Assembly (NCBI GenBank): GCA_016183365.1
Contig: JACPES010000005.1
Span: 5,895-69,894 of the forward strand
Reading direction: 5' to 3'
Length of the DNA: 64,000 nt
From: Candidatus Collierbacteria bacterium
GTDB taxonomy: Bacteria; Patescibacteriota; Microgenomatia; UBA1400; JACPES01
A model generated the notes under the pieces. That model made no database searches. It was not told where the DNA came from and saw only the letters and a program-made list of their open reading frames with translations. Below are positions 1,336 to 60,492 of the stretch, piece after piece. A program made the position numbers and the translations under genes. Each line of letters begins with the position of its first letter. Within the stretch, counting starts at the first letter, position 1.

Positions 1336-1614
1336 ATGGCAATTGCTAATCCAGAGTGGTGGAAGAGGGCGGCGATTCCGGCACGACCGGAAATTTCTAT
1401 TTCAGATAGGTTGAAACAGGCGGTGGAATTAATGGCGGCAAATATCGGTCAGGCAATTGGCCGATTAGCCAATCCGCCCTACCCGACTTCCGACGGGAAG
1501 CCACTAAAAGTAGTTTTCTATGATGGACCAAACAGTCCCCAACCATTCATGCCGGAGCAAATAAAACAGCTGGCCGCGATTACCGAAATGTTTTCGGGAA
1601 AGAATCTGAAGTAG
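1336..1614 (+). CDS. hypothetical protein
   Basis: 92-aa ORF with no recognisable motif; its stop overlaps the 3' end of the tRNA. Confidence 0.35.
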   Translation: MAIANPEWWKRAAIPARPEISISDRLKQAVELMAANIGQAIGRLANPPYPTSDGKPLKVVFYDGPNSPQPFMPEQIKQLAAITEMFSGKNLK

Positions 1615-1685
1615 CGGCGGGTGGATTCGAACCACCAACAGACACGCCTTATGAAAGCGCCGCTCTGCCATTGAGCTACGCCGCC
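1612..1685 (-). tRNA. tRNA with CAT anticodon (Met or lysidine-Ile2)
   Basis: Reverse complement reads GGCGGCG-TA-GCTC-AATGGCA-GAGC-G-GCGCT-TTCATAA-GGCGT...GGTGG-TTCGAAT-CCACC-CGCCGCT. It has a cloverleaf with a T-loop GTTCGAATC and a 7-nt anticodon loop U-U-CAU-A-A. Confidence 0.8.
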
Positions 1686-2373
1686 TTTAATTATTTTACA
1701 CCAAATCCTTGTTTTAACCCTTTTATCCAGCCACGCATTTTTCTTAGTCGATCAAGGCTCTTACTAATGTGAATTCTGATTACTCCATAATATTCATTTC
1801 TATTTGAATATTGCTTTTTCCACTGACTGTTCTGAAAAAATGGCTTGGTAAACTGGTTATAAGGCATATCCAAATAGTTAGACCAAAACTCTTCAATTGT
1901 TTTAATTCTATCTTTGTGCGAAATATTCGCAGTAACTCTGAACCTCAAATCTCCAATTGTAATGCCTAAATATTGTTTTAACCAATTCAGTCTTTCGTTA
2001 ACTCATGATATAATAATTTTGTTCTTTAACGTGCGGGTGGGAGGTAAGTATCTCGTGAGGCTTAATTATATGGGTCTCAATAAACTTGGCTATATGCTGG
2101 AAGTCCCGACCCAAAGTCGGGATAATCAGCAGGAAAGATCCCGATTGAATCGGGGAATCCTCAGAGACTACACGCCGAGTCCCGATTTAATCGGGGAAGA
2201 TATAGTCCGACACTCTTAAGTAATGGGAGACAACAATGTGCATAATCTCACTTAATCGGGGAGCGTAACCCCGGACCCGCAACCAGATTTCGCCGGTGAA
2301 TCTTCTTACTGATTTCTTTTTAACGTCTTGAAGGATACAAGGACATGAAGGATATAAAGAGTATAATGCCCCC

Positions 2374-3497: not shown

Positions 3498-4220
3498 GTG
3501 GCATATCACTGTATGGACAATCAAATGCTTATCAAGCGATATCTTAATTCTCTCCGCCAATCCGGCAAATCCATTCTGACTCTCTCTGCTTATGCCACTG
3601 ACTTGAAGCAATTCTCTACTGTAATTTCTCCAACCCCCCTTACCCTTTTAACCAATCTTAAACTAACAACCAACAACCAACAACTTATTTCCCGCTTCTC
3701 CCCCAACTCCCGAGTCCGCAAGCTTACCACCATCCGCGAATTTTTAAAATGGTGTTTTATCAAAGGCTACTTAAAAAAAGATTTATCAGGGATTATAAAA
3801 CCCGTCCGCCGGATAACTATCTCCCCGGCTAAATCATTATCAACTTCCCAATTTTACCGTCTCCGTTCCAAAGCCGATGTTAAAGAAAGGCTGCTATTAG
3901 AACTAATTATTAACATAAATCTAAAACTATCAGCCATCGTCAAATTAAAAATGAAAGATATTACCCCTCTTTTCCTCCGTTCCTGCGGAGCAGGATCCCG
4001 CTTTGTGGGACAATCCTTGGACTACTATCTGGCCCAATTCCCCCGCGGTCCCAAAAGCTATTTATTGGCCAACAAATTCAACCGGCCGATGTCAGTTAGA
4101 ACCTTAAGCTCTATATTAAAAAATTTATCCCGCCGAGCCGGGGTCAAACACGGTACTTTTAGGAATCTGCGGGCCATATATTTTGCCAGTCAAGAAAGGA
4201 CCCGATCATATAAACGATGA
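3498..4220 (+). CDS. tyrosine recombinase/phage-integrase-family protein, divergent XerC/D-like
   Basis: N-terminal SAM-like motif (IKRYLNSLRQSGKSILTLSAYATDLKQF) and a C-terminal region alignable to the integrase catalytic domain, but the active-site R and the terminal Y-motif are not clearly conserved. Confidence 0.45.
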   Translation: MAYHCMDNQMLIKRYLNSLRQSGKSILTLSAYATDLKQFSTVISPTPLTLLTNLKLTTNNQQLISRFSPNSRVRKLTTIREFLKWCFIKGYLKKDLSGIIKPVRRITISPAKSLSTSQFYRLRSKADVKERLLLELIININLKLSAIVKLKMKDITPLFLRSCGAGSRFVGQSLDYYLAQFPRGPKSYLLANKFNRPMSVRTLSSILKNLSRRAGVKHGTFRNLRAIYFASQERTRSYKR

Positions 4221-5707: not shown

Positions 5708-5751
5708 ATTACTAGTCGCGATTAATCCTCGGGGAAAGTGTGATTCTTTGT

Positions 5752-5822
5752 GGGCCCGGTAGGATTCGAACCTACGACGTTCGAGGTATAAGCTCGACGC
5801 TCTGCCGCTGAGCTACGGGCCC
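5752..5822 (-). tRNA. tRNA-Ile with UAU anticodon
   Basis: Reverse complement reads GGGCCCG-TA-GCTC-AGCGGCA-GAGC-G-TCGAG-CTTATAC-CTCGA-ACGTC-GTAGG-TTCGAAT-CCTAC-CGGGCCC-A. It is a perfect cloverleaf with anticodon loop C-U-UAU-A-C. Confidence 0.8.
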
Positions 5823-6278
5823 GCTTGTTATTTTACTACGATGCTCCCCTCCTGTCTTTCTTTTCCCTCTATTCCTTCTAATCCCTCTGTATTATTATTG
5901 GTTCGTGTCTTTCGGCTATAAATCTCTACTAAGTTACCAATTGGCAAAAATTGCGTTTGGTTTGGGATGGGAGTTTGTGCCGCTATATTTCGTCGGTTCG
6001 GAGTTTGGTAGGCAACGAGACCAAATTTATCAAGATCTCCGGTCGCATAAACAGAATATCGTGGAAGGATCAGCTGAAAGAAGTCTGTCCAGCAAGTTAA
6101 AACTCTATGACGTCTCTAGATCTTCAGGGCAGGAAGGGCTGGAAGATTTTGAAGATATTTTGCAGTTTGAAAACTTGCCGCGATGGGACAAAAATGATCA
6201 GCGACTAATCAAGCTCCGAAGCATAATTGAAGGTTATTCCCCGTCCCATCCTTCCGGTCCTTCTTTTCCTTCTTCTCC

Positions 6279-11297: not shown

Positions 11298-11825
11298 CTA
11301 TCGATGTCCCAGTGTGTAAAGTGTGTCTAAGTGATTAAATCCAATATTCTGCGGTAGTTTTTTGAAGAATTTAATCTCGGCTGTGTCATCGGCAGGCTTG
11401 GAAGGCCAGGCCTTTCCCGGAAAGGCCTGGCCTTTTTGATCTGGTTTGATGGTGCATCGATATACTAAGTCGACTACGTGACCGCGCGGATCACCGGTTA
11501 GATCGTCAAATGCTTCGGCCAACTTCACATTCTCAACTTTTATCCCCAATTCTTCCTTTGCCACCCGCTTAACGCAATTCATTAACGCTTCGCCTTTCAA
11601 AACAAAACTCCCCGGCAAATGCCAGTAGCCGGCAAACGGCAGCCTTTTGCGTTTGGTCAGCAATACTGCTTTGCTGTTAAGTTTCGCAAACTTCACATTA
11701 GCGGAAGTTTGCGAAACTTCTATATCTTGCTCAATCAGGAGATTCACGGCCACCCGCGGCGCGTATTTAAAACTTCTAAGAAACGTTTGAAAGGGAAGTT
11801 TCTTGGGATTCATATCAATAATCAA
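11298..11825 (-). CDS. NUDIX hydrolase
   Basis: Nudix box GEALMNCVKRVAKEELG (Gx5Ex7REUxEExGU). Carries two in-frame palindromic repeat insertions. Confidence 0.7.
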   Translation of the reverse strand: MIIDMNPKKLPFQTFLRSFKYAPRVAVNLLIEQDIEVSQTSANVKFAKLNSKAVLLTKRKRLPFAGYWHLPGSFVLKGEALMNCVKRVAKEELGIKVENVKLAEAFDDLTGDPRGHVVDLVYRCTIKPDQKGQAFPGKAWPSKPADDTAEIKFFKKLPQNIGFNHLDTLYTLGHR

Positions 11826-12459
11826 GACCCATAACGGCTTTACGGCCAGAATCGAACGGATGTTTGATATTTTTCATCTCCGTTACCAGTTCGGCCAAAT
11901 CAATCAACTGTTTCGGCGCGTTTCTGCCGGTCAAAATAATATGCGTCTGCCCGCGTTTAGAAATTAGATCAATTAAGTCAATCAGATCAATTAATTTATC
12001 ATTGACAGCGTTGATGGCTTCGTCGAGGATTAAAAGAAATAAATGGTTGGGATGGCTTAAATGGTTAAAAGATTTTGTAGCCCTTGTAGCCATTTTGATC
12101 ATTTTTCCGCTTAATAATTCTCTCGTTAATTCCAGCGCTTCTCCCGCCGCTTTCCGGTGTTCATTTGCGCTTGCATGATCCGTCGGCAATTTATAAAATC
12201 CCAGCCCCATTGGATAAATTTCAAAGCTCCCGATTTCCCTTCTTGTGCTTTTTTGTGCTTTTTTGTGCTTTTTTGTGCTTGCCAGCATTTCCGGCAAATT
12301 ATGCTCGCCGATCCTCCATCGTTTCTCCTTATACCATTGGATCATCGCCACCCGCTTCCCCTGCCCCACCGCTCTCATCGCCACCCCAAGCGCTGCACTC
12401 GTTTTCCCCTTTCCATTCCCAGTAAAAATATAAACCAATCCGATGGCATTATCTTTCAT
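11815..12459 (-). CDS. cobA: cob(I)yrinic acid a,c-diamide / cob(I)alamin adenosyltransferase (CobA/BtuR family)
   Basis: P-loop FTGNGKGKTSAALG and ILDE motif. Contains in-frame low-complexity insertions from tandem repeats (KKHKKAQKS, LIDLIDLIDLI, NHLSHPNH). Confidence 0.65.
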   Translation of the reverse strand: MKDNAIGLVYIFTGNGKGKTSAALGVAMRAVGQGKRVAMIQWYKEKRWRIGEHNLPEMLASTKKHKKAQKSTRREIGSFEIYPMGLGFYKLPTDHASANEHRKAAGEALELTRELLSGKMIKMATRATKSFNHLSHPNHLFLLILDEAINAVNDKLIDLIDLIDLISKRGQTHIILTGRNAPKQLIDLAELVTEMKNIKHPFDSGRKAVMGLDY

Positions 12460-12528
12460 TCCCTTATCTTAACACTCGGAAAAGTTATTTTTTATCGTCG
12501 TCTTCCCCGCATCCGCAAGTAGAACACA

Positions 12529-13245
12529 TTATAACCACCCCCCTCCGATTATTAATCCTACAATATAGGCGGCCGCAGCCGCAGTCCCACCGATCAGTAG
12601 CATTTCAATCCCTGACTTGAACCAGTTTTTACCGGTAATCCAGGATCTGGCTGAGCCGACTGAAAATAAAGCCAGAGCCGTAGCCAATATGGCGGCGTAA
12701 AATTTATTAATTGAAAAGTTGAAAACATACGGAATTAATGGCAAAAATCCCGCTGCCACAAAAGCTATAAAGGTGGCAAAAGCGTGACTAATCGGAAAAG
12801 ATTTTTGGGCGGGGATAATTCCCAACTCCCAAACCATCATTTCGTCCACCCAAACCCGTTTTTTTGAAGTGATAATTTTTTCCCATTCGGAAATTCTATC
12901 CGCCGGAATTCCCCTTTTAACGGCTATATTTCTGATTTCCTCCCTCTCTTTTTCCGGAATCTCTCCAATCTCTTTTTCTTCTATCGTCAGGCTATTTTTT
13001 TCAAAATCCGCCTGGCTTTTCGAGCCTAAGTAACTGCCCAAGGCCATGGCTAATCCGTCAGCCAACATGTTGGCTAGCCCCAAAATAATTACTACCGATG
13101 ATCCCATCCCGGCTCCGGCCGCACCGGCTGCCACCGCGAAAGTCGTTATCAGTCCGTCGTTGGCGGAAAACACCACGTCCTTAATATAATTTCCGCCTCT
13201 GGTTATATGAAGCTCTCCCTCGGAATTCCGTTTTAAATTGATCAT
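12529..13245 (-). CDS. VIT1/CCC1 family iron/manganese transporter
   Basis: DVVFSANDGLITTFAVAAGAAGA motif and a C-terminal TM bundle typical of the VIT family. Confidence 0.65.
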   Translation of the reverse strand: MINLKRNSEGELHITRGGNYIKDVVFSANDGLITTFAVAAGAAGAGMGSSVVIILGLANMLADGLAMALGSYLGSKSQADFEKNSLTIEEKEIGEIPEKEREEIRNIAVKRGIPADRISEWEKIITSKKRVWVDEMMVWELGIIPAQKSFPISHAFATFIAFVAAGFLPLIPYVFNFSINKFYAAILATALALFSVGSARSWITGKNWFKSGIEMLLIGGTAAAAAYIVGLIIGGGWL

Positions 13246-13461
13246 GGGAATAATCTATCATTTTCCGCCTTCGCTTGCCATTCGCCTTTAGCAGAACTAT
13301 CCGTTCACGGCTCCTCACTGACGCTTCCCGCTCGGCTTTTCAGTACTATTCGTACACGCCTCGTGGAGCGCGTCTTGTGTGGGGCAGGCATGGCGCGCTA
13401 TCCGGCGGATTTGTTGCTCCTGCTGATTTTTCTTCCAGAAAAATCAGGGATCAACGAAAAT

Positions 13462-13497
13462 AATTAACGCATAATTAACGCATAATTAACGCAAGGG
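13462..13497. repeat. 3x tandem 11-bp repeat (ATAATTAACGC) in the leader of the VIT transporter gene
   Basis: ataattaacgcataattaacgcataattaacgc read directly. It lies in a 369-bp intergenic leader with several hairpins. Confidence 0.8.
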
Positions 13498-13614
13498 GAT
13501 TTTTAAGGCTAAAATACCGCCCCAGCGCCCATCCCAGTAGTACGTTGCTTGCTCCCCCCGATTTAATCGGGACGTCGCAAGGGCGCGACTACGGGACTTC
13601 GCTAGTTTGAATTT

Positions 13615-16170
13615 TTATAACGAACATTTTGAGTATCCACAAGAGTAACAAGTGCTGCACCCACTCTCGGAAGTCATTGCCGCTCCGCATTCCGGACAAT
13701 GGCCGTCGGCCAAATCCTCGGTGATCCGCCGTCTTTCAACCTGATATGCCCTTTGGGACAACGGCGTAATCTTCATCTGACTTTGCATCAGGCGTTGAGA
13801 TTGTTGATTGTTTTTCTCATCTTTCACATCCGCGGCAGTTTTTAATATTTGATTTTCTCTTGATCCGTCGCGATAGACGGTGATGCCTTTGCATCCAAGT
13901 TTCCAAGCGAGTAAATAAGCTTTTTCTACGTCTTTGACTGTGGCGGCACGGGAAAAATTAATGGTCTTGCTGACAGCGTTGTCAGTATATTTTTGAAACG
14001 CGGCCTGCATTTTAACGTGCCAGTCGGGAGAGATTTGGCGGGCGGTGCGGAAGATAGAAGATAAAATAGTCGAATGGTTAAGAGTGTTAAGAGTGTTAGG
14101 ATTGTTATCTACCCGATAACCATCTTTACCATCTCCACCATCTTGCCATCTTTCTATCTCTTTCTTCGCTTTTTCATAATACTTATTCGTATACCTCAAC
14201 CCTTCTTTCTCCACCACGTTTTTTGTATATTCCAAAGCAAAGTATGGTTCTATCCCCGATGAACAACCGGCAATCATGGAGATCGTCCCTGTCGGGGCGA
14301 TAGTTGTTATCGCCACGTTACGCACTTTTCGTCTGCGGCCAAACGGATTCTTGACGCTATTGAAATACGACTGTTTCCAGAGGGGGAATTCCGCCTTTTC
14401 TTTGGATAACTTCTCGCTCTCGTCCCAACTGATTTGCTGAATAAATTTCATGATCGATTCAGCTAATTTTATTCCTTCATCGCTGTCATAGCTTACGCCT
14501 AATTTAACCAACATATCCGCCCAGCCCATCACCCCAAGACCAATCCGCCGGAGTTTATGTGCCATATCGGCAATCTGTGGAATGGGATAGGTTGAGGCAT
14601 CTATGCCGTCGTCAAGAAAGCGGACCGCGGTGCGGATAACCTCTTCAAGACGGGACCGGTTAATATTGTCCAGAACACTCTGAAAACTCTGAAAGCCAGA
14701 CTGTCGGATAATCGGAGAATCGGAATGCCAGATTTTCTGGCTTTCCGGACCCCCGAGTTTTCCGAGTTTTCCGGAATCTTCCCAGAATGGTTTAATCACA
14801 AACTTCGCCAGATTTATGCTACCAAGGTTGCAAACGTCAAAAGGAAACAGAGGCTGTTCACCACATACATTTGTCGCATCTATCCGCCATTTTTTGATTA
14901 GAGGGTTATATTTATTGATAGTATCCAGATAAATCATCCCCGGGTCTCCGGTTAAGTGGGCTAAATTGATCATCTCATTCCATAGCCTCCGGGCCGAAAT
15001 TTTTTGGACCGTTGAGTCGTCGCGAGGATTAACCAATCCCCAGTCGGAATTTTTTTCTACCGCACTCATGAATCTATCAAAAGCGCCGACAGAAATATTG
15101 AAATTGCTAATTTCTCCGTCAACGGATTTGGCGCGGATAAATTCAAAAATATCCGGATGGTCAACGTTTAGGATCCCCATATTGGCGCCGCGGTGTTCGC
15201 CGCCCTGCATCACAATTTGGGTTTCGGCGTCAAACGCTTTCATAAAATTAATCGGACCGGAAGATAAGCCTCCGGAACGGACCGTATCGCCGCGGGGACG
15301 CAAATGAGAAAAATTAAAACCGGTTCCGCCGCCCATTTGATGGATCAGCGCCGCCCATTTGACGGCGTCGAAAATCTTCTCGATTGAATCCTCAACCGGT
15401 AAAACAAAACAATTGGCCAAAGATCCGTTCTGCTTATTTCCTGCCCCCCGGAAATAACACCCGGCCGGAACAAATTCAAAAAAGGTCATAATTTCCAGGT
15501 ACTTGTCCCACCAGTTATGTCTGGAAAGGCCAGGCCTTTTCAAAAAAGGCCTGGCCTTTTTTGATATCTTTTGTTCTACTTCGGCTTTCTCTGTTACAAC
15601 CACAGCGTCTGCGACGCGCCTCATTGCCTCCATGGGTGTTTCGATCACATTCCCCTCTTTATCTTTCCACAAATATCGTTTGGCCATGGCGGCATAGGCG
15701 TTATCCGACATACCAAGGCGAGAAGTGTCTGATAATTGAGAAGTACCAGATACTTCTCGTTGGGCTGCGCGCCGGTTCCGATAAAGAATGTAGGCCTGGG
15801 CCGCATCTTGGTGTCCGGCGGCCAGCAACACCTGTTCGACGATATCCTGAATTTCCTCGACTGTCCACTGATTATGACCGTTGGAACGAATCAGGGTATC
15901 CTCGACGATTTTGGCGAAGCGCTCCGCCTCTTTCCACAACGAAGATTGTTTGTCGGCTTTTTGTCGGGGAACTTCAGTCTCGGCGGCCCGACGGGCAATT
16001 TCGTCAACTCCGGTGATTTGGGAGAATTTTTTTCTTACTTGGGAAACCGCCCACAGCGACTGCCAAGCTGCCATGGTAATTTTGCCGCGGTCGTACTTTT
16101 GTTTCCGGCCGTCGCGCTTGAGGATGGTGTAAATTGGCCTATTGGTTTCTCCGGGTTTTTTATTTGACAT
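13615..16170 (-). CDS. nrdJ: class II (adenosylcobalamin-dependent) ribonucleotide reductase with N-terminal ATP-cone
   Basis: ATP-cone start IYTILKRDGRKQKYDRGKI; RNR core motifs (SLANCFVLP, ATNVCGEQ); C-terminal zinc ribbon CPECGAAMTSESGCSTCYSCGYSKC. Confidence 0.85.
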   Translation of the reverse strand: MSNKKPGETNRPIYTILKRDGRKQKYDRGKITMAAWQSLWAVSQVRKKFSQITGVDEIARRAAETEVPRQKADKQSSLWKEAERFAKIVEDTLIRSNGHNQWTVEEIQDIVEQVLLAAGHQDAAQAYILYRNRRAAQREVSGTSQLSDTSRLGMSDNAYAAMAKRYLWKDKEGNVIETPMEAMRRVADAVVVTEKAEVEQKISKKARPFLKRPGLSRHNWWDKYLEIMTFFEFVPAGCYFRGAGNKQNGSLANCFVLPVEDSIEKIFDAVKWAALIHQMGGGTGFNFSHLRPRGDTVRSGGLSSGPINFMKAFDAETQIVMQGGEHRGANMGILNVDHPDIFEFIRAKSVDGEISNFNISVGAFDRFMSAVEKNSDWGLVNPRDDSTVQKISARRLWNEMINLAHLTGDPGMIYLDTINKYNPLIKKWRIDATNVCGEQPLFPFDVCNLGSINLAKFVIKPFWEDSGKLGKLGGPESQKIWHSDSPIIRQSGFQSFQSVLDNINRSRLEEVIRTAVRFLDDGIDASTYPIPQIADMAHKLRRIGLGVMGWADMLVKLGVSYDSDEGIKLAESIMKFIQQISWDESEKLSKEKAEFPLWKQSYFNSVKNPFGRRRKVRNVAITTIAPTGTISMIAGCSSGIEPYFALEYTKNVVEKEGLRYTNKYYEKAKKEIERWQDGGDGKDGYRVDNNPNTLNTLNHSTILSSIFRTARQISPDWHVKMQAAFQKYTDNAVSKTINFSRAATVKDVEKAYLLAWKLGCKGITVYRDGSRENQILKTAADVKDEKNNQQSQRLMQSQMKITPLSQRAYQVERRRITEDLADGHCPECGAAMTSESGCSTCYSCGYSKCSL
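14671..14790. repeat. ~120-bp palindromic TIR element, in-frame within nrdJ-A
   Basis: CAGAACACTCTGAAAACTC...TTTCCGAGTTTTCCGGAA; same family as the copies in nrdJ-B, nrdJ-C, the two PBP genes and the 60530..62266 membrane-protein gene. Confidence 0.75.
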
Positions 16171-16198
16171 TATCTAGATAGAGCATATAATAAATTTA

Positions 16199-16945
16199 TT
16201 AACTCGTTTGGGATGGACGCTTGCGTCGGTTCCGACGGGTTTTTTCTTGCCAAAATCTTGTCTTGATCTGTTTCCATTTGATCACTCTTTCGGAAACAAT
16301 TTTAGTTCTAATTATTTGATAGAAAACGTTATCCTTTCCTGTCTGCGCCCATAACACGCTCCCGGCCACCATATCAGCAACATTAACCAGCGGTTCCGTT
16401 TGACTATCAACATGAACCGGCGATAACGGCTCGTCCAATAGACTAGTTAATACTTGATTAAATTTGTCTTGATCTATGGTTCTTTGAAAATGGCGGTCGA
16501 GAACGACGTGTTTAATCTGATGTTGATAGTATAAAAGACAATCTTCAAGCAGCAACCAGCAAAGAAGGGCAAAATTCTCCGGAGAATCGGTTATGCTTTG
16601 ATTTTGTTTTTCAACGATTAAAACAAAAATCTCTACGTCTTGAGCAGCCAATTTTTCCAGAAATTTTTTCTTAGTTCTGTCGCCGGCTCGATAAAACTTG
16701 ATTTCCGGCGGATTACTCTTGGCGTAATGTTTCCTGATAATTTTAGTCATGGATTTAAGTCGCTGGGGTGTTTGAGTTGATATGGCAGCTACAACCACAG
16801 CCGGATCCCGGGGATCGGGTAAAGTCCCGGATTCATCCAGATAAACAGTTCTGCCTACTCGCCTGTATTCAACCGCGGTGGGAAGCCGAGGAAATTTCCG
16901 CCCGTCGCGCTTGAGGATGATGGAAATTAACTTTTGGGATTTCAT
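16199..16945 (-). CDS. DUF3800-like protein whose first ~20 codons duplicate the nrdJ ATP-cone start
   Basis: YLDESG motif near the N-terminus (DUF3800 hallmark, recalled from memory). The N-terminus ISIILKRDGRKF and ~35 bp of DNA are near-identical to the nrdJ-A 5' end. Confidence 0.4.
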   Translation of the reverse strand: MKSQKLISIILKRDGRKFPRLPTAVEYRRVGRTVYLDESGTLPDPRDPAVVVAAISTQTPQRLKSMTKIIRKHYAKSNPPEIKFYRAGDRTKKKFLEKLAAQDVEIFVLIVEKQNQSITDSPENFALLCWLLLEDCLLYYQHQIKHVVLDRHFQRTIDQDKFNQVLTSLLDEPLSPVHVDSQTEPLVNVADMVAGSVLWAQTGKDNVFYQIIRTKIVSERVIKWKQIKTRFWQEKTRRNRRKRPSQTS

Positions 16946-17238
16946 TTGGTATATTGATTTATATTATGCCAGCTGGAATTAATGGATCTGAAGAAGATCA
17001 GGGAATATCGCGTCAAGAAACAGACCAGCCCGAAACATCCGAATCGGCAAGAACGTCGTTCCTAACATACATGGCATTTGGGATGCTGGCAATAAATGGG
17101 GCAATTGAAGTCGCCAATGGAATAGCCATGGATGACGGATCGAAAATGTTCTACGGAGGTGTTGACATATTAATTGCTGCTTTGGCATATTTTGCTACTC
17201 CGCATAGATACCGACGTGTTTAGTAGGTGTATCTTTTT

Positions 17239-19302
17239 TTAGACGCTGCATTTTGACCAACCGCAGCTATGGCAAGTGACACAACCATTTTCGGCAATTA
17301 CCGCAGCTCCACACTCCGGACAGACGGCGGCGGGACCGGAGCCGGGACGCAAAGGCAAATGTTGAATGGCAGAATTTTCATTCGTCATTCGTAATTGGTC
17401 ATTCGTCATTGTATCCTTAGCAAGATTCAAAACCTGATCTTTTTTTGAGCCGTCTCTATAAATAGTAATCCCCTTGCAGCCGAGTTTCCAGGCCAGAATG
17501 TAGGCTTTTTCTACATCTTCAACAGTAGTATTATGGGGGAAGTTAATGGTTTTGCTGATTGAGTTATCAAAATGTTTCTGCCAGGCGGCCTGAATCTTAA
17601 CGTGCCACGATGGAGAAATCTCATGGGTGGTAACAAATATCTTATAAAACCAGCCGGGCAAACCTTCGATGGATTTTAATCCGTATTCCGCGACGTGTTT
17701 CAGAACACTCGGAAAACTCGGAGTTTCAGATAAATCAGAAAGTCGGAGAATCGGAAAATCAGAACTTCTGATCTTCTGATTTTCTGACTTTCTGACATTC
17801 CGGCTTTCCGAGTTTTCAGAGTTTTCCGAAATGACTCTCTTTAGTTCTTCTTCAAACACCGGATCGACCATATATATTTCCTTCGTCGGCCTATTTTTTC
17901 TATCGTCTTCAAAGAATGTTCGTCTTTTTGTGACCAACGAAAAAATCGGCTCTATCCCCGAAGTAGTGTCGGCGAGCATCGCCGTAGTCCCAGTGGGGGC
18001 AATCATGGTAGTAGCGCAGTTTCGCATCGGATGCTTGTCAAAATAAATACTCCTGTCCCAGTTGCCGAAGTTGCCGCGGACTTTGGCCAGTTTCATACTC
18101 TCATTTTGGGCAGTTTCCTGGATGAACTTTGCCAATTTTTCCGAAAGCTCCTCCGCTTGACTAGAGTTGTACGGAATACCTAATTTAACCAACATATGGG
18201 AAAATCCCATCACGCCTAATCCAATGCGGCGGTTGCCGTTTTTGACCATCTGCTCAATTTCGGGAATAGCATAGGTATTAACTTCAATCATGTCGTCGAG
18301 AAACCGGACCCCGAGACGGACGCTCTTTTCTAAGTCTTCCCAGTCAACTCCATTCATTGTTTCCTGTTTCTTGCTTCTTGCTTCTTTTATATGATTCTGC
18401 AAGCAAATACTTGTCAAATTGCAACTCTCGTAGGGCAAAAGTCCGATTTCGCCGCAGGGATTAGTCGCTTCTATCCGTCCAATTTGGGGAGTGGGGTTGT
18501 CGCGGTTAAAAGTATCCAAAAACATCAAACCCGGATCGCCGGTTTGATGGGCGTGGTCAACGATCATTTTGAATAATTTCCGGGCTTTTATCTTTCTCAC
18601 CGGCTCCCCGGTTCTGGGGTTAATTAAATTCCACATCTTATCCGCCTGAACCGCTTTCATAAATTCGTCGGTTACTCCAACGGAAATATTAAAGTTCTTG
18701 ATAGTGCCATCCTCGTCTTTAAGGCGAATAAAGTCTTCAATGTCGGGATGGTCGGCGTTTAAAATCCCGATGTTGGCGCCTTGGCGTTTGGCGCCCTGAA
18801 GAATTTTTGACAGGGCGGCGGAATAGGCGGCCAGAAAGTCCACCGGACCGGAGGCGGCGTTGGGGACATTTTTGACTTTGTCGCCGCGGGGACGGATGCG
18901 GGAAAAATTAAAGCCGGTGCCGCCGTTATTTTTATGGACGACGGCAGCGTCACCCAAGGTTTTGAAAATCGACTGAATGTTGTCTTCGACCGGAAGAACG
19001 AAACAGCTGCTCAATTGGCCGGTGCCGCCGGGGTTACCGGCCTCAAACATGGCCTTGCCGGCGCATACGAATTTGAAATTCACCATCCGGTCGTAAAAGG
19101 CGACGGCAATCTCGGCAACTTTCCCGTTTCCGCCATTCCAATTGACTTCGGCTTTAGCCATATGTCTGGCGACCCGCCACAGCATCTCTCCCGGAGTTTC
19201 GATGACTTTTCCGGACATATCGGTGCGGAGATAACGCTTCTGGGAAATCTTTATGGCAGTTGGTGATAGTTTTGGTTCGATGATAGTCATATGTATAGAC
19301 AA
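17239..19302 (-). CDS. nrdJ: class II ribonucleotide reductase paralog (no ATP-cone)
   Basis: SSCFVLP, ATNPCGEIGL, C-terminal CPECGAAVIAENGCVTCHSCGWSKC. Carries a ~135-bp in-frame palindromic element. Confidence 0.85.
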   Translation of the reverse strand: MSIHMTIIEPKLSPTAIKISQKRYLRTDMSGKVIETPGEMLWRVARHMAKAEVNWNGGNGKVAEIAVAFYDRMVNFKFVCAGKAMFEAGNPGGTGQLSSCFVLPVEDNIQSIFKTLGDAAVVHKNNGGTGFNFSRIRPRGDKVKNVPNAASGPVDFLAAYSAALSKILQGAKRQGANIGILNADHPDIEDFIRLKDEDGTIKNFNISVGVTDEFMKAVQADKMWNLINPRTGEPVRKIKARKLFKMIVDHAHQTGDPGLMFLDTFNRDNPTPQIGRIEATNPCGEIGLLPYESCNLTSICLQNHIKEARSKKQETMNGVDWEDLEKSVRLGVRFLDDMIEVNTYAIPEIEQMVKNGNRRIGLGVMGFSHMLVKLGIPYNSSQAEELSEKLAKFIQETAQNESMKLAKVRGNFGNWDRSIYFDKHPMRNCATTMIAPTGTTAMLADTTSGIEPIFSLVTKRRTFFEDDRKNRPTKEIYMVDPVFEEELKRVISENSENSESRNVRKSENQKIRSSDFPILRLSDLSETPSFPSVLKHVAEYGLKSIEGLPGWFYKIFVTTHEISPSWHVKIQAAWQKHFDNSISKTINFPHNTTVEDVEKAYILAWKLGCKGITIYRDGSKKDQVLNLAKDTMTNDQLRMTNENSAIQHLPLRPGSGPAAVCPECGAAVIAENGCVTCHSCGWSKCSV
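17701..17835. repeat. ~135-bp palindromic TIR element, in-frame within nrdJ-B
   Basis: CAGAACACTCGGAAAACTCGGAG...TTTCCGAGTTTTCAGAGTTTTCCGAA; translated as ENSENSESRNVRKSENQKIRSSDFPILRLSDLSETPSFPSVL. Confidence 0.8.
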
Positions 19303-19332
19303 ATTTTAAATTGTAAATTAACTCTCTTGTCC

Positions 19333-21405
19333 TCATACCGAGCATTTACTCCATCCGCATTCCTGACAAGTTGCGCATCCATCCATCAACGTCAGTTCTC
19401 CCCTGCATTCCGGACACACTTCGTCAGGATTTCCTTTAACCGTTAACCTTTGACCTTTGACCTTCCCCACATTGAGCACTTGCTCTCTCCGGCAGCCGTC
19501 GCGATAAACCGTAATTCCTTTACATCCGGTTTCGAAAGCTAATAAATAAGCGTTTTTAATATCGTCGACTGTGGCCGAATTGGGCAAATTAATAGTTTTT
19601 GATACCGCCGCATCTGTATATTTTTGCCATGCGGCTTGCATTTTAATATGCCATCTGTAGGGAATTTCCATGGAGACACGGAAGATATCTCTTACTTCTT
19701 GCGGAATTTCTTTAATATTTTGGCAACTGCCGGACACAGAGACTCTCTCCAGAACACTCGGAAAACTTGGAACATCAGATAAATCAGAAGATCGGAGTTT
19801 CAGAGAACCAGAATTTCTGGTCGTCTGATTGTCTGATTTTCTGATTTTCCGGCTTTCAGAGTTTTCAGAGTTTTCTGAAATTACACCAACTGCTTTTGAA
19901 AATTCTTCGTTAACTTCTAGCAAACTCGTCTTCCCCAAATCTAAAATATTTTCCCTTCTGTACGCCAAGGCAAACAACGGTTCTATTCCACTGGAACAAC
20001 CGGCGATTATGGAAATAGTCCCGGTCGGGGCGACGGTGTTGACCGTTGAATTACGCATATGAGTGAAACCTTGCTTCTGCCAAACGCTATCTTCGAAAGC
20101 CGGGAAAGAACCACGACTTCTAGCCAGTTCCACCGAGGCGTCGCGGGCAGTATCATGGATAAATTTAGCGGTTTTTTTCGCTAGTTTCAACGCCGCTTCC
20201 GAGTCGTAACGAACCCCCAGTTTAATCAACATGTCCGCCCAGCCCATGACGCCGACGCCGATTTTTCTGGTGGTCAGGGCCATTTTTTTTAATTGGGGAA
20301 TCGGATAGTCGCAGAGGTCGATAACGTTGTCCTGAAAGTGAACCCCGAGACGGACGACCTCTTCTAATCGTTTCCAGTTGATTCTTTCCAGAACACTCGG
20401 AAAACTCTGAGAACCAGAGAAATCGGAATATCGGAGGATCGGAGAATCAGACGATCCGGCCTTCTGACTTTCTGATTTTCTGATATTCCGGCTTTCCGAG
20501 TATTCCGAGTTTTCTGAACTTACAAATCTTCCCAGGTTTATATTCCCCAAGTTGCATGACTCATACGGTAATAGGGCTTGTTCGCCACACGGGTTAGTTG
20601 CTTGATATATCCCTAATTTTGGCGTCGGACAATATTTATTCATGACATCTAAAAACACTAATCCCGGGTCGCCGACTTTCCAGGCCTGGGTGGCGATTAA
20701 ATTCCATAACTCCATCACGTCGATATCTTTTTCGGTGGCGCCGTCGTTGGGGTGAAATAAATGAATAGTCCCCTTTTTGGCTTTGACCTTTTCCATAAAT
20801 TCGTCTGTAGCCCCGACGCTGACGTTAAAATGGTAGAGCGTGGACGGATCTTCTTTGGACATAATAAATTCAACGATGTCCGGGTGATCAACCTTCAATA
20901 CTCCCATCAGGGCGGGGCGGCGGGCGCTGGCCTCGGCGATGGTGGCGGCGGAATAATTAAATAACCGCAGGAAAGAAACGGCGCCGGAACTGATGCCGCC
21001 GGTTGATTCCACCAAAGAACCCCGCGGCCTAAGATTTGTCAGCGGGATTCCAATCCCGCCGCCGGTCCGTAAAATCAGGGCCGCGTTGCGCAGTTGATCA
21101 TAAATATCTTCCAAGGAATCGGATAAAGGCAAAACATAGCAAGCCGAAAATTGTTTATGCTTGCGGCCGGCGTTAAGGAGGACCGAGCCGGAAAGATATT
21201 CCAAATTCGACATGGCCCGATAAAAATCATCGGCGACTTTTTTTATCTCCTGATCCGCTTTATCTCCCTTTACTCTTAGATATTTTTTGTCAGCCGACGC
21301 GATTAAGTTAGCTACCCGTCGGAACATCTGATCAGGGATTTCTTTTGGCAAAAGATAGCCGCGTTTTTTCAAAACTACCAAAGCGTTATCGGATAAATTT
21401 GTCAT
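19333..21405 (-). CDS. nrdJ: class II ribonucleotide reductase paralog (no ATP-cone)
   Basis: SACYVLP, ATNPCGEQAL, C-terminal CPECRGELTLMDGCATCQECGWSKC. Carries two in-frame palindromic elements. Confidence 0.85.
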   Translation of the reverse strand: MTNLSDNALVVLKKRGYLLPKEIPDQMFRRVANLIASADKKYLRVKGDKADQEIKKVADDFYRAMSNLEYLSGSVLLNAGRKHKQFSACYVLPLSDSLEDIYDQLRNAALILRTGGGIGIPLTNLRPRGSLVESTGGISSGAVSFLRLFNYSAATIAEASARRPALMGVLKVDHPDIVEFIMSKEDPSTLYHFNVSVGATDEFMEKVKAKKGTIHLFHPNDGATEKDIDVMELWNLIATQAWKVGDPGLVFLDVMNKYCPTPKLGIYQATNPCGEQALLPYESCNLGNINLGRFVSSENSEYSESRNIRKSESQKAGSSDSPILRYSDFSGSQSFPSVLERINWKRLEEVVRLGVHFQDNVIDLCDYPIPQLKKMALTTRKIGVGVMGWADMLIKLGVRYDSEAALKLAKKTAKFIHDTARDASVELARSRGSFPAFEDSVWQKQGFTHMRNSTVNTVAPTGTISIIAGCSSGIEPLFALAYRRENILDLGKTSLLEVNEEFSKAVGVISENSENSESRKIRKSDNQTTRNSGSLKLRSSDLSDVPSFPSVLERVSVSGSCQNIKEIPQEVRDIFRVSMEIPYRWHIKMQAAWQKYTDAAVSKTINLPNSATVDDIKNAYLLAFETGCKGITVYRDGCRREQVLNVGKVKGQRLTVKGNPDEVCPECRGELTLMDGCATCQECGWSKCSV
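19751..19880. repeat. palindromic TIR element copy 1 in nrdJ-C
   Basis: CCAGAACACTCGGAAAACTTGG...TTTCAGAGTTTTCAGAGTTTTCTGAA. Confidence 0.8.
20391..20520. repeat. palindromic TIR element copy 2 in nrdJ-C
   Basis: CCAGAACACTCGGAAAACTCTGAG...TTTCCGAGTATTCCGAGTTTTCTGAA. Confidence 0.8.
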
Positions 21406-23397: not shown

Positions 23398-23832
23398 TCA
23401 TTCCGTGGACGCGGCGTATTCTTTCAGCCCAATGACCAATCTTGTATCGGCCACTTTTCTAACAAGTTTGGCATCGGCGGAGACCAATGCGGTATTGGCG
23501 GCTTTGGCTAAAGTAAGATAAGAGCCGTCGTATCCCGACAGCTGATATTTTTTGGCTAAAGTCAAACATAATTTATATTCGTCGGCTATCGATAGAAGCT
23601 GTGGTTTTGATTTAAGAAAAAATTTCAGGAATTTCAACGAATTGGAAAAAGTTATTTTATCCCTAGCGACAGCCGTCACTAAAGCATTGACAATTTCGTA
23701 CTCCCATAACAAAGGCGCTAGCAGCGTAACTTTTTTTTCCTCACTGGCTTTAAGAATGGATAGAGCCGCGGACGAGTCCTCTTCGGCAAACAGCCATTTC
23801 AAACAAACCGAGGCGTCAATAACGATATTCAT
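23398..23832 (-). CDS. vapC: PIN-domain ribonuclease toxin VapC
   Basis: MNIVIDASVCLKWL N-terminal PIN acidic motif; 144 aa; immediately downstream of a small RHH-like ORF. Confidence 0.75.
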   Translation of the reverse strand: MNIVIDASVCLKWLFAEEDSSAALSILKASEEKKVTLLAPLLWEYEIVNALVTAVARDKITFSNSLKFLKFFLKSKPQLLSIADEYKLCLTLAKKYQLSGYDGSYLTLAKAANTALVSADAKLVRKVADTRLVIGLKEYAASTE

Positions 23833-25416: not shown

Positions 25417-25692
25417 TCAGGAGCGGCGATAGACTTGGTCGTGGGTGCCGAGATCGAAAAAATAGAATATTTCATCTTCCAAGATAGCGTATAACATCCG
25501 AACACTGCCGGTGATACTAATGCTCCAAACCTGCTGTTGGCTACCGACGAGTTGATGATTTCTAAGCGAAGGATAATGAGGATTCTGTTGGAAAAGAGCG
25601 AGCTGTTTTTCGATTTTCGCCGACAAACTTTTATCTCTGCGTTTAAGCGACCGGAACCGTTTTAATAAATCTGGAGAAATCTGAATTTCCAT
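25417..25692 (-). CDS. RelE/ParE-family toxin
   Basis: 91 aa; WSISITGSVRMLYAIL...FFDLGTHDQVY matches the RelE/YafQ pattern. Confidence 0.55.
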   Translation of the reverse strand: MEIQISPDLLKRFRSLKRRDKSLSAKIEKQLALFQQNPHYPSLRNHQLVGSQQQVWSISITGSVRMLYAILEDEIFYFFDLGTHDQVYRRS

Positions 25693-25700
25693 TGATTTGA

Positions 25701-25955
25701 TTAAAGGGTTTCGAAAAATTTAGAGACATCATCAACGGCAACCGCCTTATGTCTGTCTTTTAACGCTTTTTTAAGTATTTTCTTGGTTCTATCCGACATT
25801 TCAAACACCGGAAAATCCATCGGGGAGACGTCTTTGATAACTAAATGGCGGACATATCCGGAAATAGGCAGGTCATATTTGGCGGCTTTACTGGCCAAAA
25901 ACTCCCATAGAGCCACCGGCAGATTGACTTTGATTTGAGTCTGCGGAGTAATCAT
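25701..25955 (-). CDS. putative antitoxin of RelE/ParE pair
   Basis: 84-aa ORF directly upstream and co-oriented with the toxin. Confidence 0.45.
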   Translation of the reverse strand: MITPQTQIKVNLPVALWEFLASKAAKYDLPISGYVRHLVIKDVSPMDFPVFEMSDRTKKILKKALKDRHKAVAVDDVSKFFETL

Positions 25956-30576: not shown

Positions 30577-31020
30577 ATGATTATGAAGTTGAATTTGGAG
30601 CAGAAGCGGAAAATCGTGGATTATTTTAGGCGGCGGCCGGAGGCGGCCGGGGTGTATCTTTACGGATCGCAGACCGGGAGCGGGGCGGGCCCCTTAAGCG
30701 ATGTAGATGTGGCGGTAATAATGTCCGGGGAAACGGCCAAAGACAAATATCTTGATTTTCAACTGGAATATATCAACGAAATCCAATCAATCCTCAAGGT
30801 TGATTTGACCGCCGACGTTAAAATTCTTAACGAAGATTACGCTTTAATTTATCAAGCGTCGGTAATTAACCAGGGCGAATTGATTGTCAATAATCGCCCC
30901 AAAGAAGTCGATCAGTTTGCCCATCGGGTAGGAATACTGTATCCTGATTTTTATCCTGTGCTGTCAAATTACTATTTTAAAATGTACCAACGCTTGGAAG
31001 AAGGGACCTATGCCTCTTGA
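30577..31020 (+). CDS. minimal nucleotidyltransferase (MNT antitoxin-like)
   Basis: GSQTGSGAGPLSDVDVAV matches the GS...DxD nucleotidyltransferase motif. Confidence 0.6.
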   Translation: MIMKLNLEQKRKIVDYFRRRPEAAGVYLYGSQTGSGAGPLSDVDVAVIMSGETAKDKYLDFQLEYINEIQSILKVDLTADVKILNEDYALIYQASVINQGELIVNNRPKEVDQFAHRVGILYPDFYPVLSNYYFKMYQRLEEGTYAS

Positions 31021-31432
31021 CAAAGACCAAATCAGTCAAAAATTAGCGCAGTTGGAAGAATATATTTCTAAAATTAGAAAATATGGTCAAAGCCCGGAAT
31101 CTGAATTCACGGCCGACTCGATGGTGGAAGCGGCGGCGGAAAGGGCAATTTATAAAGCGGCGCAGCAAGTGATTGATATCGCCCAGTCTATCAGCAGCAG
31201 TTTGAGGTTCGGCCCGCCGCGATTTTATCGGGATTTATTTATTCAGCTGGGAGAACGCGGAGTTATTTCTAAAGAACTGCAACCTAAACTTGAAGCGATG
31301 GCCGGGTTAAGAAATAAACTGGCTCATGAATATGCCGTGATTAATCCGAAAGAAATTTATCAAGTGGCAAAACAAGATTATCAAGACCTGGTTGAGTTTG
31401 CCAAACAGGTGGCATCTTACCTGCAAAAATAA
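31010..31432 (+). CDS. HEPN-domain protein (DUF86/HepT-like)
   Basis: R-x4-H motif LRNKLAHEY; overlaps and is co-oriented with the MNT gene. Confidence 0.6.
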   Translation: MPLDKDQISQKLAQLEEYISKIRKYGQSPESEFTADSMVEAAAERAIYKAAQQVIDIAQSISSSLRFGPPRFYRDLFIQLGERGVISKELQPKLEAMAGLRNKLAHEYAVINPKEIYQVAKQDYQDLVEFAKQVASYLQK

Positions 31433-42566: not shown

Positions 42567-43004
42567 CTAAGAGATAGAAGTAGGAAGTAAAACTTTAATG
42601 TCTTTCATTGGAAAGTCTTTGTAATTTCTTGTGACCAAAGTTAGATTGTACAATTTAGCTGTAGCGGCGATAAAACAAGCTAATAAGTAAACGCGTTTTT
42701 TCTTGCGGGCAAAATCTTTTCGATACTTCCCGGCGATTTCCGCCACAACTTGATCGACTGCTAACGCTCCGAATCTGCTGACTAGTAAATCCAATTTTTC
42801 TTTCTCGATCACAGAAGCCTTGCTGACTATCTCGGCAACGGTCACCGCAGACAGGGCAATTTCTCCACTTTCAATCCAAGATTTAACTCGTGAAGCGATT
42901 GGCTCTTCTCCGTGGAAAGCCTCCAGCATCACGTTGGTATCTAATAGATATTTAGGGGCGGTGCCGATCTTCATCTTTTCGCAATTTCCTTTGCCACTCG
43001 CCAA
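42567..43004 (-). CDS. vapC: PIN-domain toxin VapC
   Basis: KYLLDTNVMLEAF PIN motif; paired with a small upstream ORF. Confidence 0.6.
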   Translation of the reverse strand: MASGKGNCEKMKIGTAPKYLLDTNVMLEAFHGEEPIASRVKSWIESGEIALSAVTVAEIVSKASVIEKEKLDLLVSRFGALAVDQVVAEIAGKYRKDFARKKKRVYLLACFIAATAKLYNLTLVTRNYKDFPMKDIKVLLPTSIS

Positions 43005-59824: not shown

Positions 59825-60208
59825 TTAAGCGTTGAAGAATTTTAGGCCCGGGATTCCCTGAAAATGTTTTTTATTTCTGGTCGCTAGCTGAACTTTGAGC
59901 CAGATTGAGGTTGCTCCAATAATAAAATCTGAAGTTTGGATAGCCAATTTCCGTTCCCGCCTAAGTTCGCCGCTAAATCTGGCAAGCACTTTGTCAAATG
60001 TAACAACCTTGAAGCTGTCAATAAATTTCTCGAGGGTGACAGCGGTTTCGGCTGAAGATTTACCGGCAAACAATTCCATCACGGTAATGCTGGAAAGATA
60101 AAGTTCAATTTGGCGTTGTTTTTGCAGCCCGATCAGCGCAGGAAACGATCCCCGTCCGGAGCGGAAAAAATCAATTAATATATCGGTATCCACCAATACC
60201 TTCTTCAT
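59825..60208 (-). CDS. vapC: PIN-domain toxin VapC
   Basis: MKKVLVDTDILIDFF PIN motif. Confidence 0.7.
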   Translation of the reverse strand: MKKVLVDTDILIDFFRSGRGSFPALIGLQKQRQIELYLSSITVMELFAGKSSAETAVTLEKFIDSFKVVTFDKVLARFSGELRRERKLAIQTSDFIIGATSIWLKVQLATRNKKHFQGIPGLKFFNA

Positions 60209-60492
60209 TAACTCTCTCCCAGATGTTTCATATATTCTCTTTCTTTTTTGTTTCTGAAAAGCTTTCTATCGAAAGTAATTTTGCCCACCAATTTTTCTGC
60301 CAGCTCGAGCGCTCTTCCAGCCCTAGCTTCTAAGTCGTCATCCATTTTTGTAACTTTGAAGATTTTCCTGCCCTTGTTTTCAACTTCAACTTCGTAGCCC
60401 TCCAGCGATACCAAACCGGCATACTTGAATAAATCTTTTCTGAATGCGGTAATCGGCACGGTCGTAATCATATGTACATAAGTGTACACCAT
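60208..60492 (-). CDS. putative antitoxin paired with VapC
   Basis: 94-aa ORF abutting the PIN gene on the same strand; the start may be an internal Met. Confidence 0.45.
   Translation of the reverse strand: MVYTYVHMITTVPITAFRKDLFKYAGLVSLEGYEVEVENKGRKIFKVTKMDDDLEARAGRALELAEKLVGKITFDRKLFRNKKEREYMKHLGES

Follow-up and report, generated by a model that had tools for sequence, protein, structure and literature searches.

How does a bacterium read the isoleucine codon AUA when its genome encodes a tRNA with the anticodon UAU? The classical bacterial route relies on a tRNA with a CAU anticodon that is converted to lysidine by TilS (PMC3575796), and the initial annotation of the locus studied here was in line with the literature in assigning this route to most bacteria. 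We analysed a 64-kb stretch of DNA (64,000 nt, referred to as the window) that carries a gene for a tRNA-Ile(UAU) on its minus strand. We estimate a probability of roughly 85% that this gene is a functional, chromosomal, single-copy tRNA-Ile with a genomic UAU anticodon in a bacterium of the Patescibacteria, probably of the Microgenomates group.

A tRNA-Ile gene with the anticodon UAU

The gene is 72 nt long, with the anticodon UAU at 5790-5788 inside an anticodon loop that reads CUUAUAC (5792-5786). ARAGORN reports a tRNA-Ile (tat) at 5750-5822 on the minus strand, and the Rfam model RF00005 matches end to end at 5751-5822 (-) with 72.8 bits (E = 5e-14; gathering score 29). Read directly from the sequence, the acceptor stem is GGGCCCG/CGGGCCC, the D arm GCUC-AGCGGCA-GAGC, the anticodon arm UCGAG-CUUAUAC-CUCGA, which bears A37, the variable loop ACGUC and the T arm GUAGG-UUCGAAU-CCUAC. 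The discriminator base A73 lies at 5751 and is followed by CAAAG; CCA is not encoded. Direct reading, ARAGORN and Rfam together give no intron and no other anticodon register. The initial annotation had claimed a cloverleaf with the anticodon UAU in a CUUAUAC loop, and all three lines bear it out; a tRNA scanner, which it had named as the tool that could move the anticodon, left it in place, with no intron and no misregister. The minimum-free-energy (MFE) fold of the isolated RNA is not the cloverleaf, a departure that is common for tRNAs, and the cloverleaf is accepted despite it on the strength of the covariance model and the family alignment, which decide the matter.

Within the window the gene is single-copy, and its sequence recurs identically on three Logan metagenome contigs from three sequencing runs. 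The GC content of the tRNA region is typical of the window, which is at approximately 0.44 throughout. On the antisense strand (5750-5822, +) the gene scores 46 bits (gathering score 65.7) on the Rfam model RF04354 ('Plastid-ycf2 5UTR RNA'), the consensus of which is, in reverse complement, plastid trnI-CAU. The score is a weak pointer to a tRNA-Ile(CAU)-like body of the UAU tRNA. As a side observation, RF04354 thus cross-matches the antisense strand of bacterial tRNA-Ile genes.

The codon that this anticodon would read is in regular use. In 64 non-overlapping open reading frames (ORFs) of the window, AUA accounts for 261 of 18,378 codons (14.2 per 1000; 18.7% of isoleucine codons) and is present in 58 of the 64, which supplies the measurement of AUA usage that the initial annotation had suggested and falls in the 'high' class on the scale of PMC12514573. 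The meaning of the codon can be read from an 851-aa ribonucleotide reductase encoded in the window, aligned with 106 homologues. Its nine AUA sites align to 62% isoleucine, 14% valine and 0.9% methionine; AUU and AUC sites align to 52% and 49% isoleucine, respectively, and AUG sites to 50% methionine. One AUA site is isoleucine in 106 of 106 homologues. This indicates that AUA is isoleucine in this genome, not methionine. Given that the codon is both frequent and read as isoleucine, a dedicated decoder is needed.

The tRNA family, its host and its precedents

We scanned one genome per GTDB species with the pattern GTAGCTCA..AGAGC......CTTATA..GGTTCRANTCC and obtained at least 120 loci. Among the 120 pattern matches listed, at least 63 are labelled in the record title as belonging to the candidate phyla radiation (CPR). 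The CPR groups among them are Saccharibacteria, Uhrbacteria, Taylorbacteria, Niyogibacteria, Kaiserbacteria, Vogelbacteria, Nealsonbacteria, Buchananbacteria, Magasanikiibacteria, Peribacteria, Dojkabacteria, WWE3, Woesebacteria, Levyibacteriota and Microgenomates. The other matches listed are mostly from Chloroflexota (including Limnocylindrales), Planctomycetota and Dormibacterota, with a few from Actinomycetota and Bacteroidota. The tRNA-Ile(UAU) is common in CPR, in a sense that the matches listed do not turn into a prevalence figure.

An alignment of the 120 pattern-matched tRNAs with the window tRNA (121 sequences) has double compensatory changes at 14 of 21 stem pairs and an invariant A73, and 25 of the 121 genes carry G1-U72. 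This pattern indicates a functional family under purifying selection on its stems, as opposed to a pseudogene. Among its closest relatives, those in Taylor-, Uhr- and Niyogibacteria have the anticodon arm CGAGCUUAUACCUCG in common with the window tRNA, and the metagenome contig L124 shares with it the longer stretch GCGUCGAGCUUAUACCUCGAA. Two contigs of Planctomycetota metagenome-assembled genomes (MAGs) present the gene in another setting, with approximately 29-32 tRNA genes packed into 3-4 kb (L033:3493-7539 and L101:663-3957) and Ile(UAU) beside Ile(GAU); these arrays may be mobile or phage-derived.

The gene content of the window is bacterial. Its ORFs include two class A penicillin-binding proteins (PBPs), a SUF operon (SufS, NifU-like, SufD, SufB, SufC and an Rrf2 regulator), a split transketolase, RpiB, Rpe, DeoC, an Fe/Mn superoxide dismutase and DsbA-like proteins, as well as DivIC, D-Ala-D-Ala ligase and a sigma factor of the extracytoplasmic function (ECF) type; many ORFs have no family match. 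This content marks the DNA as a bacterial chromosome whose reduced and patchy gene set is typical of CPR. Candidatus Collierbacteria supplies the best named homologue of the 851-aa reductase, at 66% identity, and proteins of the Microgenomates group and of Woesebacteria rank next; the NCBI taxonomy places Collierbacteria within the Microgenomates group of Patescibacteria. The host is probably a Patescibacteria bacterium of the Microgenomates group, an assignment that draws on two proteins and not on a marker-gene phylogeny. Two other origins were considered and ruled out: an archaeal one, prompted by the GGGCCCGUAGCUCAG start, by the bacterial genes (PBPs, SUF, sigma-70) and the CPR-wide tRNA family, and phage or jumbo-phage DNA, prompted by a group I intron and sparse tRNAs, by the gene content and the lack of an IMG/VR match. 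The 21-mer of the tRNA-Ile(UAU) anticodon arm has no match in IMG/VR.

Genomic UAU-Ile tRNAs have been described before. Taniguchi 2013 (PMC3575796) lists nine species in three clades without tilS and with a tRNA-Ile(TAT), and a few species that have both. The initial annotation had confined such tRNAs to a minority of lineages; this fits the literature, which treats them as exceptional, but not CPR, where they are not rare. Literature searches found no paper tying lysidine or tilS to Patescibacteria, and the breadth of UAU-Ile tRNAs in CPR is not discussed in the searchable literature. The window gene is a further case of a known way of reading AUA, ordinary for its lineage, and not a new mechanism.

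The best-studied comparison is Mycoplasma mobile, for which the replacement was described by Silva et al. (PMC1635315) and in which tRNA-Ile2(UAU) goes together with an isoleucyl-tRNA synthetase (IleRS) carrying Arg865 and a ribosome that discriminates against AUG (PMC3575796). Like the window tRNA, that of M. mobile has a genomic UAU and serves an AUA codon in real use (PMC3575796, PMC1635315); both bear A37, which in M. mobile carries N6-threonylcarbamoyladenosine (t6A). M. mobile belongs to the Mollicutes, whereas the window lineage is Patescibacteria, with a large, old-looking family and conserved synteny in place of an isolated recent switch. The canonical tRNA-Ile2(CAU), in which TilS makes lysidine at position 34 (k2C34), shares with the window tRNA the meaning of AUA as isoleucine, and the body of the window tRNA resembles plastid tRNA-Ile(CAU). 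In contrast to it, the window tRNA has a gene-encoded U34, for which a C34-to-lysidine conversion is neither needed nor possible. Lactobacillus casei, L. plantarum, Cyanothece PCC 7424 and Ferrimonas balearica (PMC3575796) also have a genomic UAU-Ile tRNA, and for these the co-occurrence of tilS is documented. The eukaryotic tRNA-Ile(UAU) is likewise a U34-type AUA decoder but, unlike the bacterial window gene, belongs to another domain of life and has U34 and U36 pseudouridylated (PMC3575796).

These precedents suggest how the window tRNA might work. It is perhaps transcribed from a promoter of its own: a sigma-70-like match (Table 1) stops 8 nt before its 5' end, which is suggestive of such a promoter and not evidence of function. 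CCA would be added post-transcriptionally by an enzyme, given that it is not encoded. By analogy with M. mobile, IleRS would accept U34 either by carrying a basic residue (Arg or Lys) where E. coli has Trp905 or as an enzyme of the IleRS2 type, and U34-A pairing would read AUA. Misreading of AUG would, on the same analogy, be kept low because the tRNA-Met(CAU), encoded 4 kb away, competes for the codon, and ribosome features or a modification of U34 may also curb it.

The CAU tRNA genes and other neighbours

Table 1 Features of the window around the tRNA-Ile(UAU) gene
Feature	Position	Strand	Evidence
Elongator-type tRNA(CAU), probably tRNA-Met	1612..1685	-	ARAGORN tRNA-Met(cat) 1611-1685; Rfam 60.2 bits
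Initiator-type tRNA(CAU), 5' exon, ends at U33	2032..2062	+	Splice-register scan, P1 pairing, intron-less alleles
Group I intron between U33 and C34	2063..2240	+	Rfam Intron_gpI, sequence pairing
Initiator-type tRNA(CAU), 3' exon, starts with anticodon CAU, ends ...ACCCGCA-A-CCA	2241..2285	+	
tRNA-Ile(UAU) gene	5751..5822	-	ARAGORN, Rfam, 121-sequence family alignment
Sigma-70-like promoter match (AAGACA, 17 nt, TAAAAT)	5830..5858	-	Consensus scan only, 9/12 matches
VirD4/TraD-like coupling ATPase, 777 aa	6279..8612	-	Weak Pfam and NCBIfam matches to TrwB, TraD and VirD4 families

The gene for the VirD4-like ATPase lies immediately upstream of the tRNA-Ile(UAU) gene on the same strand. Homologues of this ATPase with 59-65% identity, from Woesebacteria, Levyibacteriota and other Patescibacteria MAGs, adjoin the UAU tRNA in six other loci (L012, L060, L006, L083, L058 and L022), at spacings from a few tens of bases to 2.5 kb. 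The tRNA begins only 31-62 nt past the ATPase gene in L012, L058 and L083, the last of which is a complete Woesebacteria genome. Three of these loci have unexpected titles, L012 as Bathyarchaeia and L006 and L022 as Gammaproteobacteria, and carry a CPR-type VirD4-like gene beside the tRNA-Ile(UAU); they are probably mis-binned or mislabelled CPR DNA. Downstream of the tRNA follow a PMT-family glycosyltransferase, a Xer-like recombinase (with a weak tyrosine-recombinase match at 3498-4220), DivIC, a 195-aa ORF and then two CAU tRNA genes. An initiator-type and an elongator-type CAU tRNA also lie near the UAU tRNA in L022, L083, L057 and L124. The VirD4-like ATPase gene, the elongator-type tRNA(CAU), the initiator-type tRNA(CAU) and the tRNA-Ile(UAU) form a recurring CPR neighbourhood.

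The initial annotation had noted one separate CAU tRNA, on which ARAGORN and Rfam agree (Table 1), and had overlooked the second, at 2032-2285. In the first, a G1-U72 wobble and C11:G24 go together with a variable region of 7 nt and the anticodon loop UUCAUAA. C11:G24 and an anticodon stem without GGG/CCC show that it is not an initiator; it probably is an elongator tRNA-Met. Homologues with G1-U72 stand beside the UAU tRNA at L022:84-157 (8 nt away), L083:4828-4902, L124:3110-3183 and L125:637-709, and position 32 is U or A in four of five such elongator-type tRNAs, L022 having C32. The elongator tRNA-Met of Bacillus subtilis has a similar GGCGG...CCGCU acceptor stem and U32, which we take as a lead for this tRNA and not as a test. 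The antisense strand of the gene scores 15 bits on RF04354, against 46 for the UAU tRNA.

The second CAU tRNA gene is split by a group I intron. Rfam Intron_gpI matches at 2053-2228 with 66.1 bits (gathering score 50), and the exons on either side, 2032-2062 and 2241-2285, form a tRNA. When all splice registers were scanned, 2062|2241 alone gave U before the 5' splice site and G at the intron end, and this register yields the anticodon CAU. The P1 helix comprises G2057-C2078, A2058-U2077, G2059-C2076, G2060-U2075, C2061-G2074 and the wobble U2062-G2073; a P10 of 4 bp pairs C2241-A2244 with G2072-U2069 and abuts P1, and the omega G is G2240. These pairings identify the intron as the classical fMet.2Ug setting, a class taken from Williams 2020 (bioRxiv 10.1101/2020.01.27.920355).

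A metagenome scan with the 3' half of the split tRNA led to contigs L124, L125 and L126. The uninterrupted gene in L126 equals the predicted ligated exons exactly, that in L124 is one base off in the variable region (TTAAC vs TTAAT), away from the junction, and L125 is interrupted at the same position by another group I intron, a longer one. The intron-less alleles confirm the splice junction independently of the register scan. Splice registers giving the anticodon UAU or UAA were rejected as violating the U-1 and omega-G rules and as incompatible with the intron-less alleles.

After splicing, the tRNA is of the initiator type, with G2:C71, C3:G70, A11:U24, A73, a weak U1:A72 and an encoded CCA; the initiator-type tRNAs of L022 and L083 have exactly the same anticodon arm, GUGAGG-CUCAUAA-UCUCAC. 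The spliced tRNA is odd as well: GG is missing from the D loop, the T loop reads AGCGUAA, an extra G stands between T stem and acceptor stem, and the three closing G:C pairs are absent from the stem GUGAGG/UCUCAC (A29:U41, G31-U39). The split initiators of the fMet.2Ug class (Williams 2020) are alike in having the intron between U33 and C34, a U-1 wobble in P1, an omega G, an initiator-type acceptor stem, the anticodon CAU and an intron in some alleles only. They differ in the D loop, the T loop, the C1xA72 mismatch where the window gene has U1:A72, and the three G:C pairs. Reading the gene as a pyrrolysine-like or selenocysteine (Sec)-like tRNA, on the strength of its 6-bp anticodon stem, the missing GG/TΨC and the extra acceptor/T base, was rejected, given the anticodon CAU and arms homologous to initiators.

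Standard finders largely pass this tRNA over. ARAGORN reports the split gene only at a lowered threshold and misses both intron-less copies, those in L124 and L126; a search with Rfam RF00005 at E <= 10 likewise gives no match to the intron-less allele. The conservation of the tRNA across four genomic settings speaks for its being functional. Missed by the Rfam tRNA model and by default ARAGORN, it may leave genomes of the lineage seemingly without an initiator tRNA.

Elsewhere in the window, three tandem paralogues of the ribonucleotide reductase large subunit (851, 687 and 690 aa) occupy 11815-21405 (-). The first has an ATP-cone, and its best named homologues are labelled adenosylcobalamin-dependent by NCBI; a DUF3800 gene lies between the paralogues, and next to them are a NUDIX gene and one for a corrinoid adenosyltransferase (CobA/BtuR). 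Some close reductase homologues elsewhere carry inteins (P0002, P0004). Toxin-antitoxin-like genes are dense, at 23398-23832, 25417-25955, 30577-31432, 42567-43004 and 59825-60492. They comprise three PIN-domain proteins, a YafQ-like toxin and a nucleotidyltransferase/HepT pair, with more PIN genes upstream in L001.

Competing readings of the UAU tRNA

Several points weigh against the reading of the gene as a functional tRNA-Ile that serves as the AUA decoder of its host. The candidate promoter is a match to 9 of 12 consensus positions. A nearest-neighbour comparison of the tRNA body with 381 tRNAs of the fetched loci does not separate Ile from Val, so that this approach to the isotype was set aside as uninformative, Val tRNAs being as close as any others. 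The visible part of the host genome is 64 kb plus approximately 6 kb (L001), and the remainder may encode tilS, IleRS and a third CAU tRNA. An annotated TilS exists in at least one CPR bacterium (PMC10633639), and several bacteria have both systems (PMC3575796).

Since the nearest-neighbour result does not discriminate, the isoleucine identity rests on the anticodon, the meaning of AUA and the sub-threshold resemblance to plastid tRNA-Ile(CAU). A mis-assigned tRNA, either a pseudogene or one charged with another amino acid (for example with AUA read as methionine, as in mitochondria), would draw on that comparison and on the fact that ARAGORN names tRNAs by their anticodon only. We consider it highly improbable: AUA sites align with isoleucine as AUU and AUC sites do, and not with methionine, and the cloverleaf is perfect, with A37 and A73, belongs to a strongly covarying family and is identical in three samples. 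The tRNA could instead be cargo or an attachment site of an integrative or conjugative element, lying within it or at its edge, as the VirD4/TraD-like ATPase, the weak recombinase match and a mobile group I intron 3.5 kb away might suggest. But the pairing of ATPase and tRNA recurs in at least six diverged CPR genomes, with tRNAs that are approximately 70-75% identical and covary, which fits vertical descent; the flanks are housekeeping genes (DivIC, D-Ala-D-Ala ligase, sigma-70 and the PMT-family glycosyltransferase), the GC content is that of the window, no direct repeat of the tRNA occurs in the window and there is no IMG/VR match. This makes a mobile-element origin unlikely by a wide measure.

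The alternative that carries real weight concerns redundancy. The initial annotation had predicted a different AUA-decoding strategy, possibly without tilS. A search for tilS with Pfam and NCBIfam on the approximately 64 ORFs, together with a scan for the motif SGGxDS in the window and 121 loci, found neither TilS nor IleRS nor any PP-loop ORF in the window, L001 or the genome-scan loci, with approximately 70 kb of the host genome visible. The initial annotation had also proposed looking for a further CAU tRNA with Ile2 identity elements. The two CAU tRNAs of the window are initiator-type (G2:C71, C3:G70, A11:U24, A73) and elongator-type (C11:G24, G1-U72), and neither looks like a tRNA-Ile2. 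A host with TilS and a tRNA-Ile2(CAU) encoded outside the window would read AUA with a lysidine tRNA and the UAU tRNA alike. Such a pairing is known from the Lactobacillus, Cyanothece and Ferrimonas species named above, for which Taniguchi et al. proposed redundancy (PMC3575796). Within CPR, the cultivated Saccharibacteria member Southlakia epibionticum has SEML1_0730, annotated as 'tRNA lysidine(34) synthetase TilS' and marked ES in two of three essentiality columns (PMC10633639), so CPR membership does not imply loss of tilS, and lysidine and UAU strategies both exist within CPR. The same table names one tRNA-Ile gene, and that genome may simply be without a UAU tRNA. This, the missing tilS or PP-loop ORF in the window and the types of the two CAU tRNAs, including the low antisense trnI-CAU score of the elongator-type one, speak against a redundant decoder but fall short of a whole-genome test, and the small visible fraction of the genome speaks for it. 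Its chances are a little short of even. That the tRNA-Ile(UAU) is the sole AUA decoder, with tilS and tRNA-Ile2(CAU) lost, is about an even bet.

A wider proposal goes beyond the single gene: in much of Patescibacteria, the host's lineage included, a U34 tRNA-Ile would have replaced the lysidine system, and the AUN codon box would be served by a syntenic trio with no TilS. The trio would consist of an elongator tRNA-Met with G1-U72, an aberrant initiator missed by standard finders, and tRNA-Ile(UAU). We put this forward tentatively, as somewhat doubtful in its full breadth. If true, Patescibacteria would present the Mycoplasma mobile solution independently and on a far larger phylogenetic scale, which would imply lineage-wide adaptations of IleRS and the ribosome. 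Patescibacteria are already known for unusual ribosomes.

For the biology of the family, the distribution itself matters. Abundant in CPR and also present in MAGs of Chloroflexota, Planctomycetota and Dormibacterota, UAU-Ile tRNAs reach far past the nine species of 2013. They provide a large natural sample of how IleRS and ribosomes handle a U34 AUA decoder, and the same sample lets one ask whether tilS, usually held to be near-universal and essential, was lost repeatedly.

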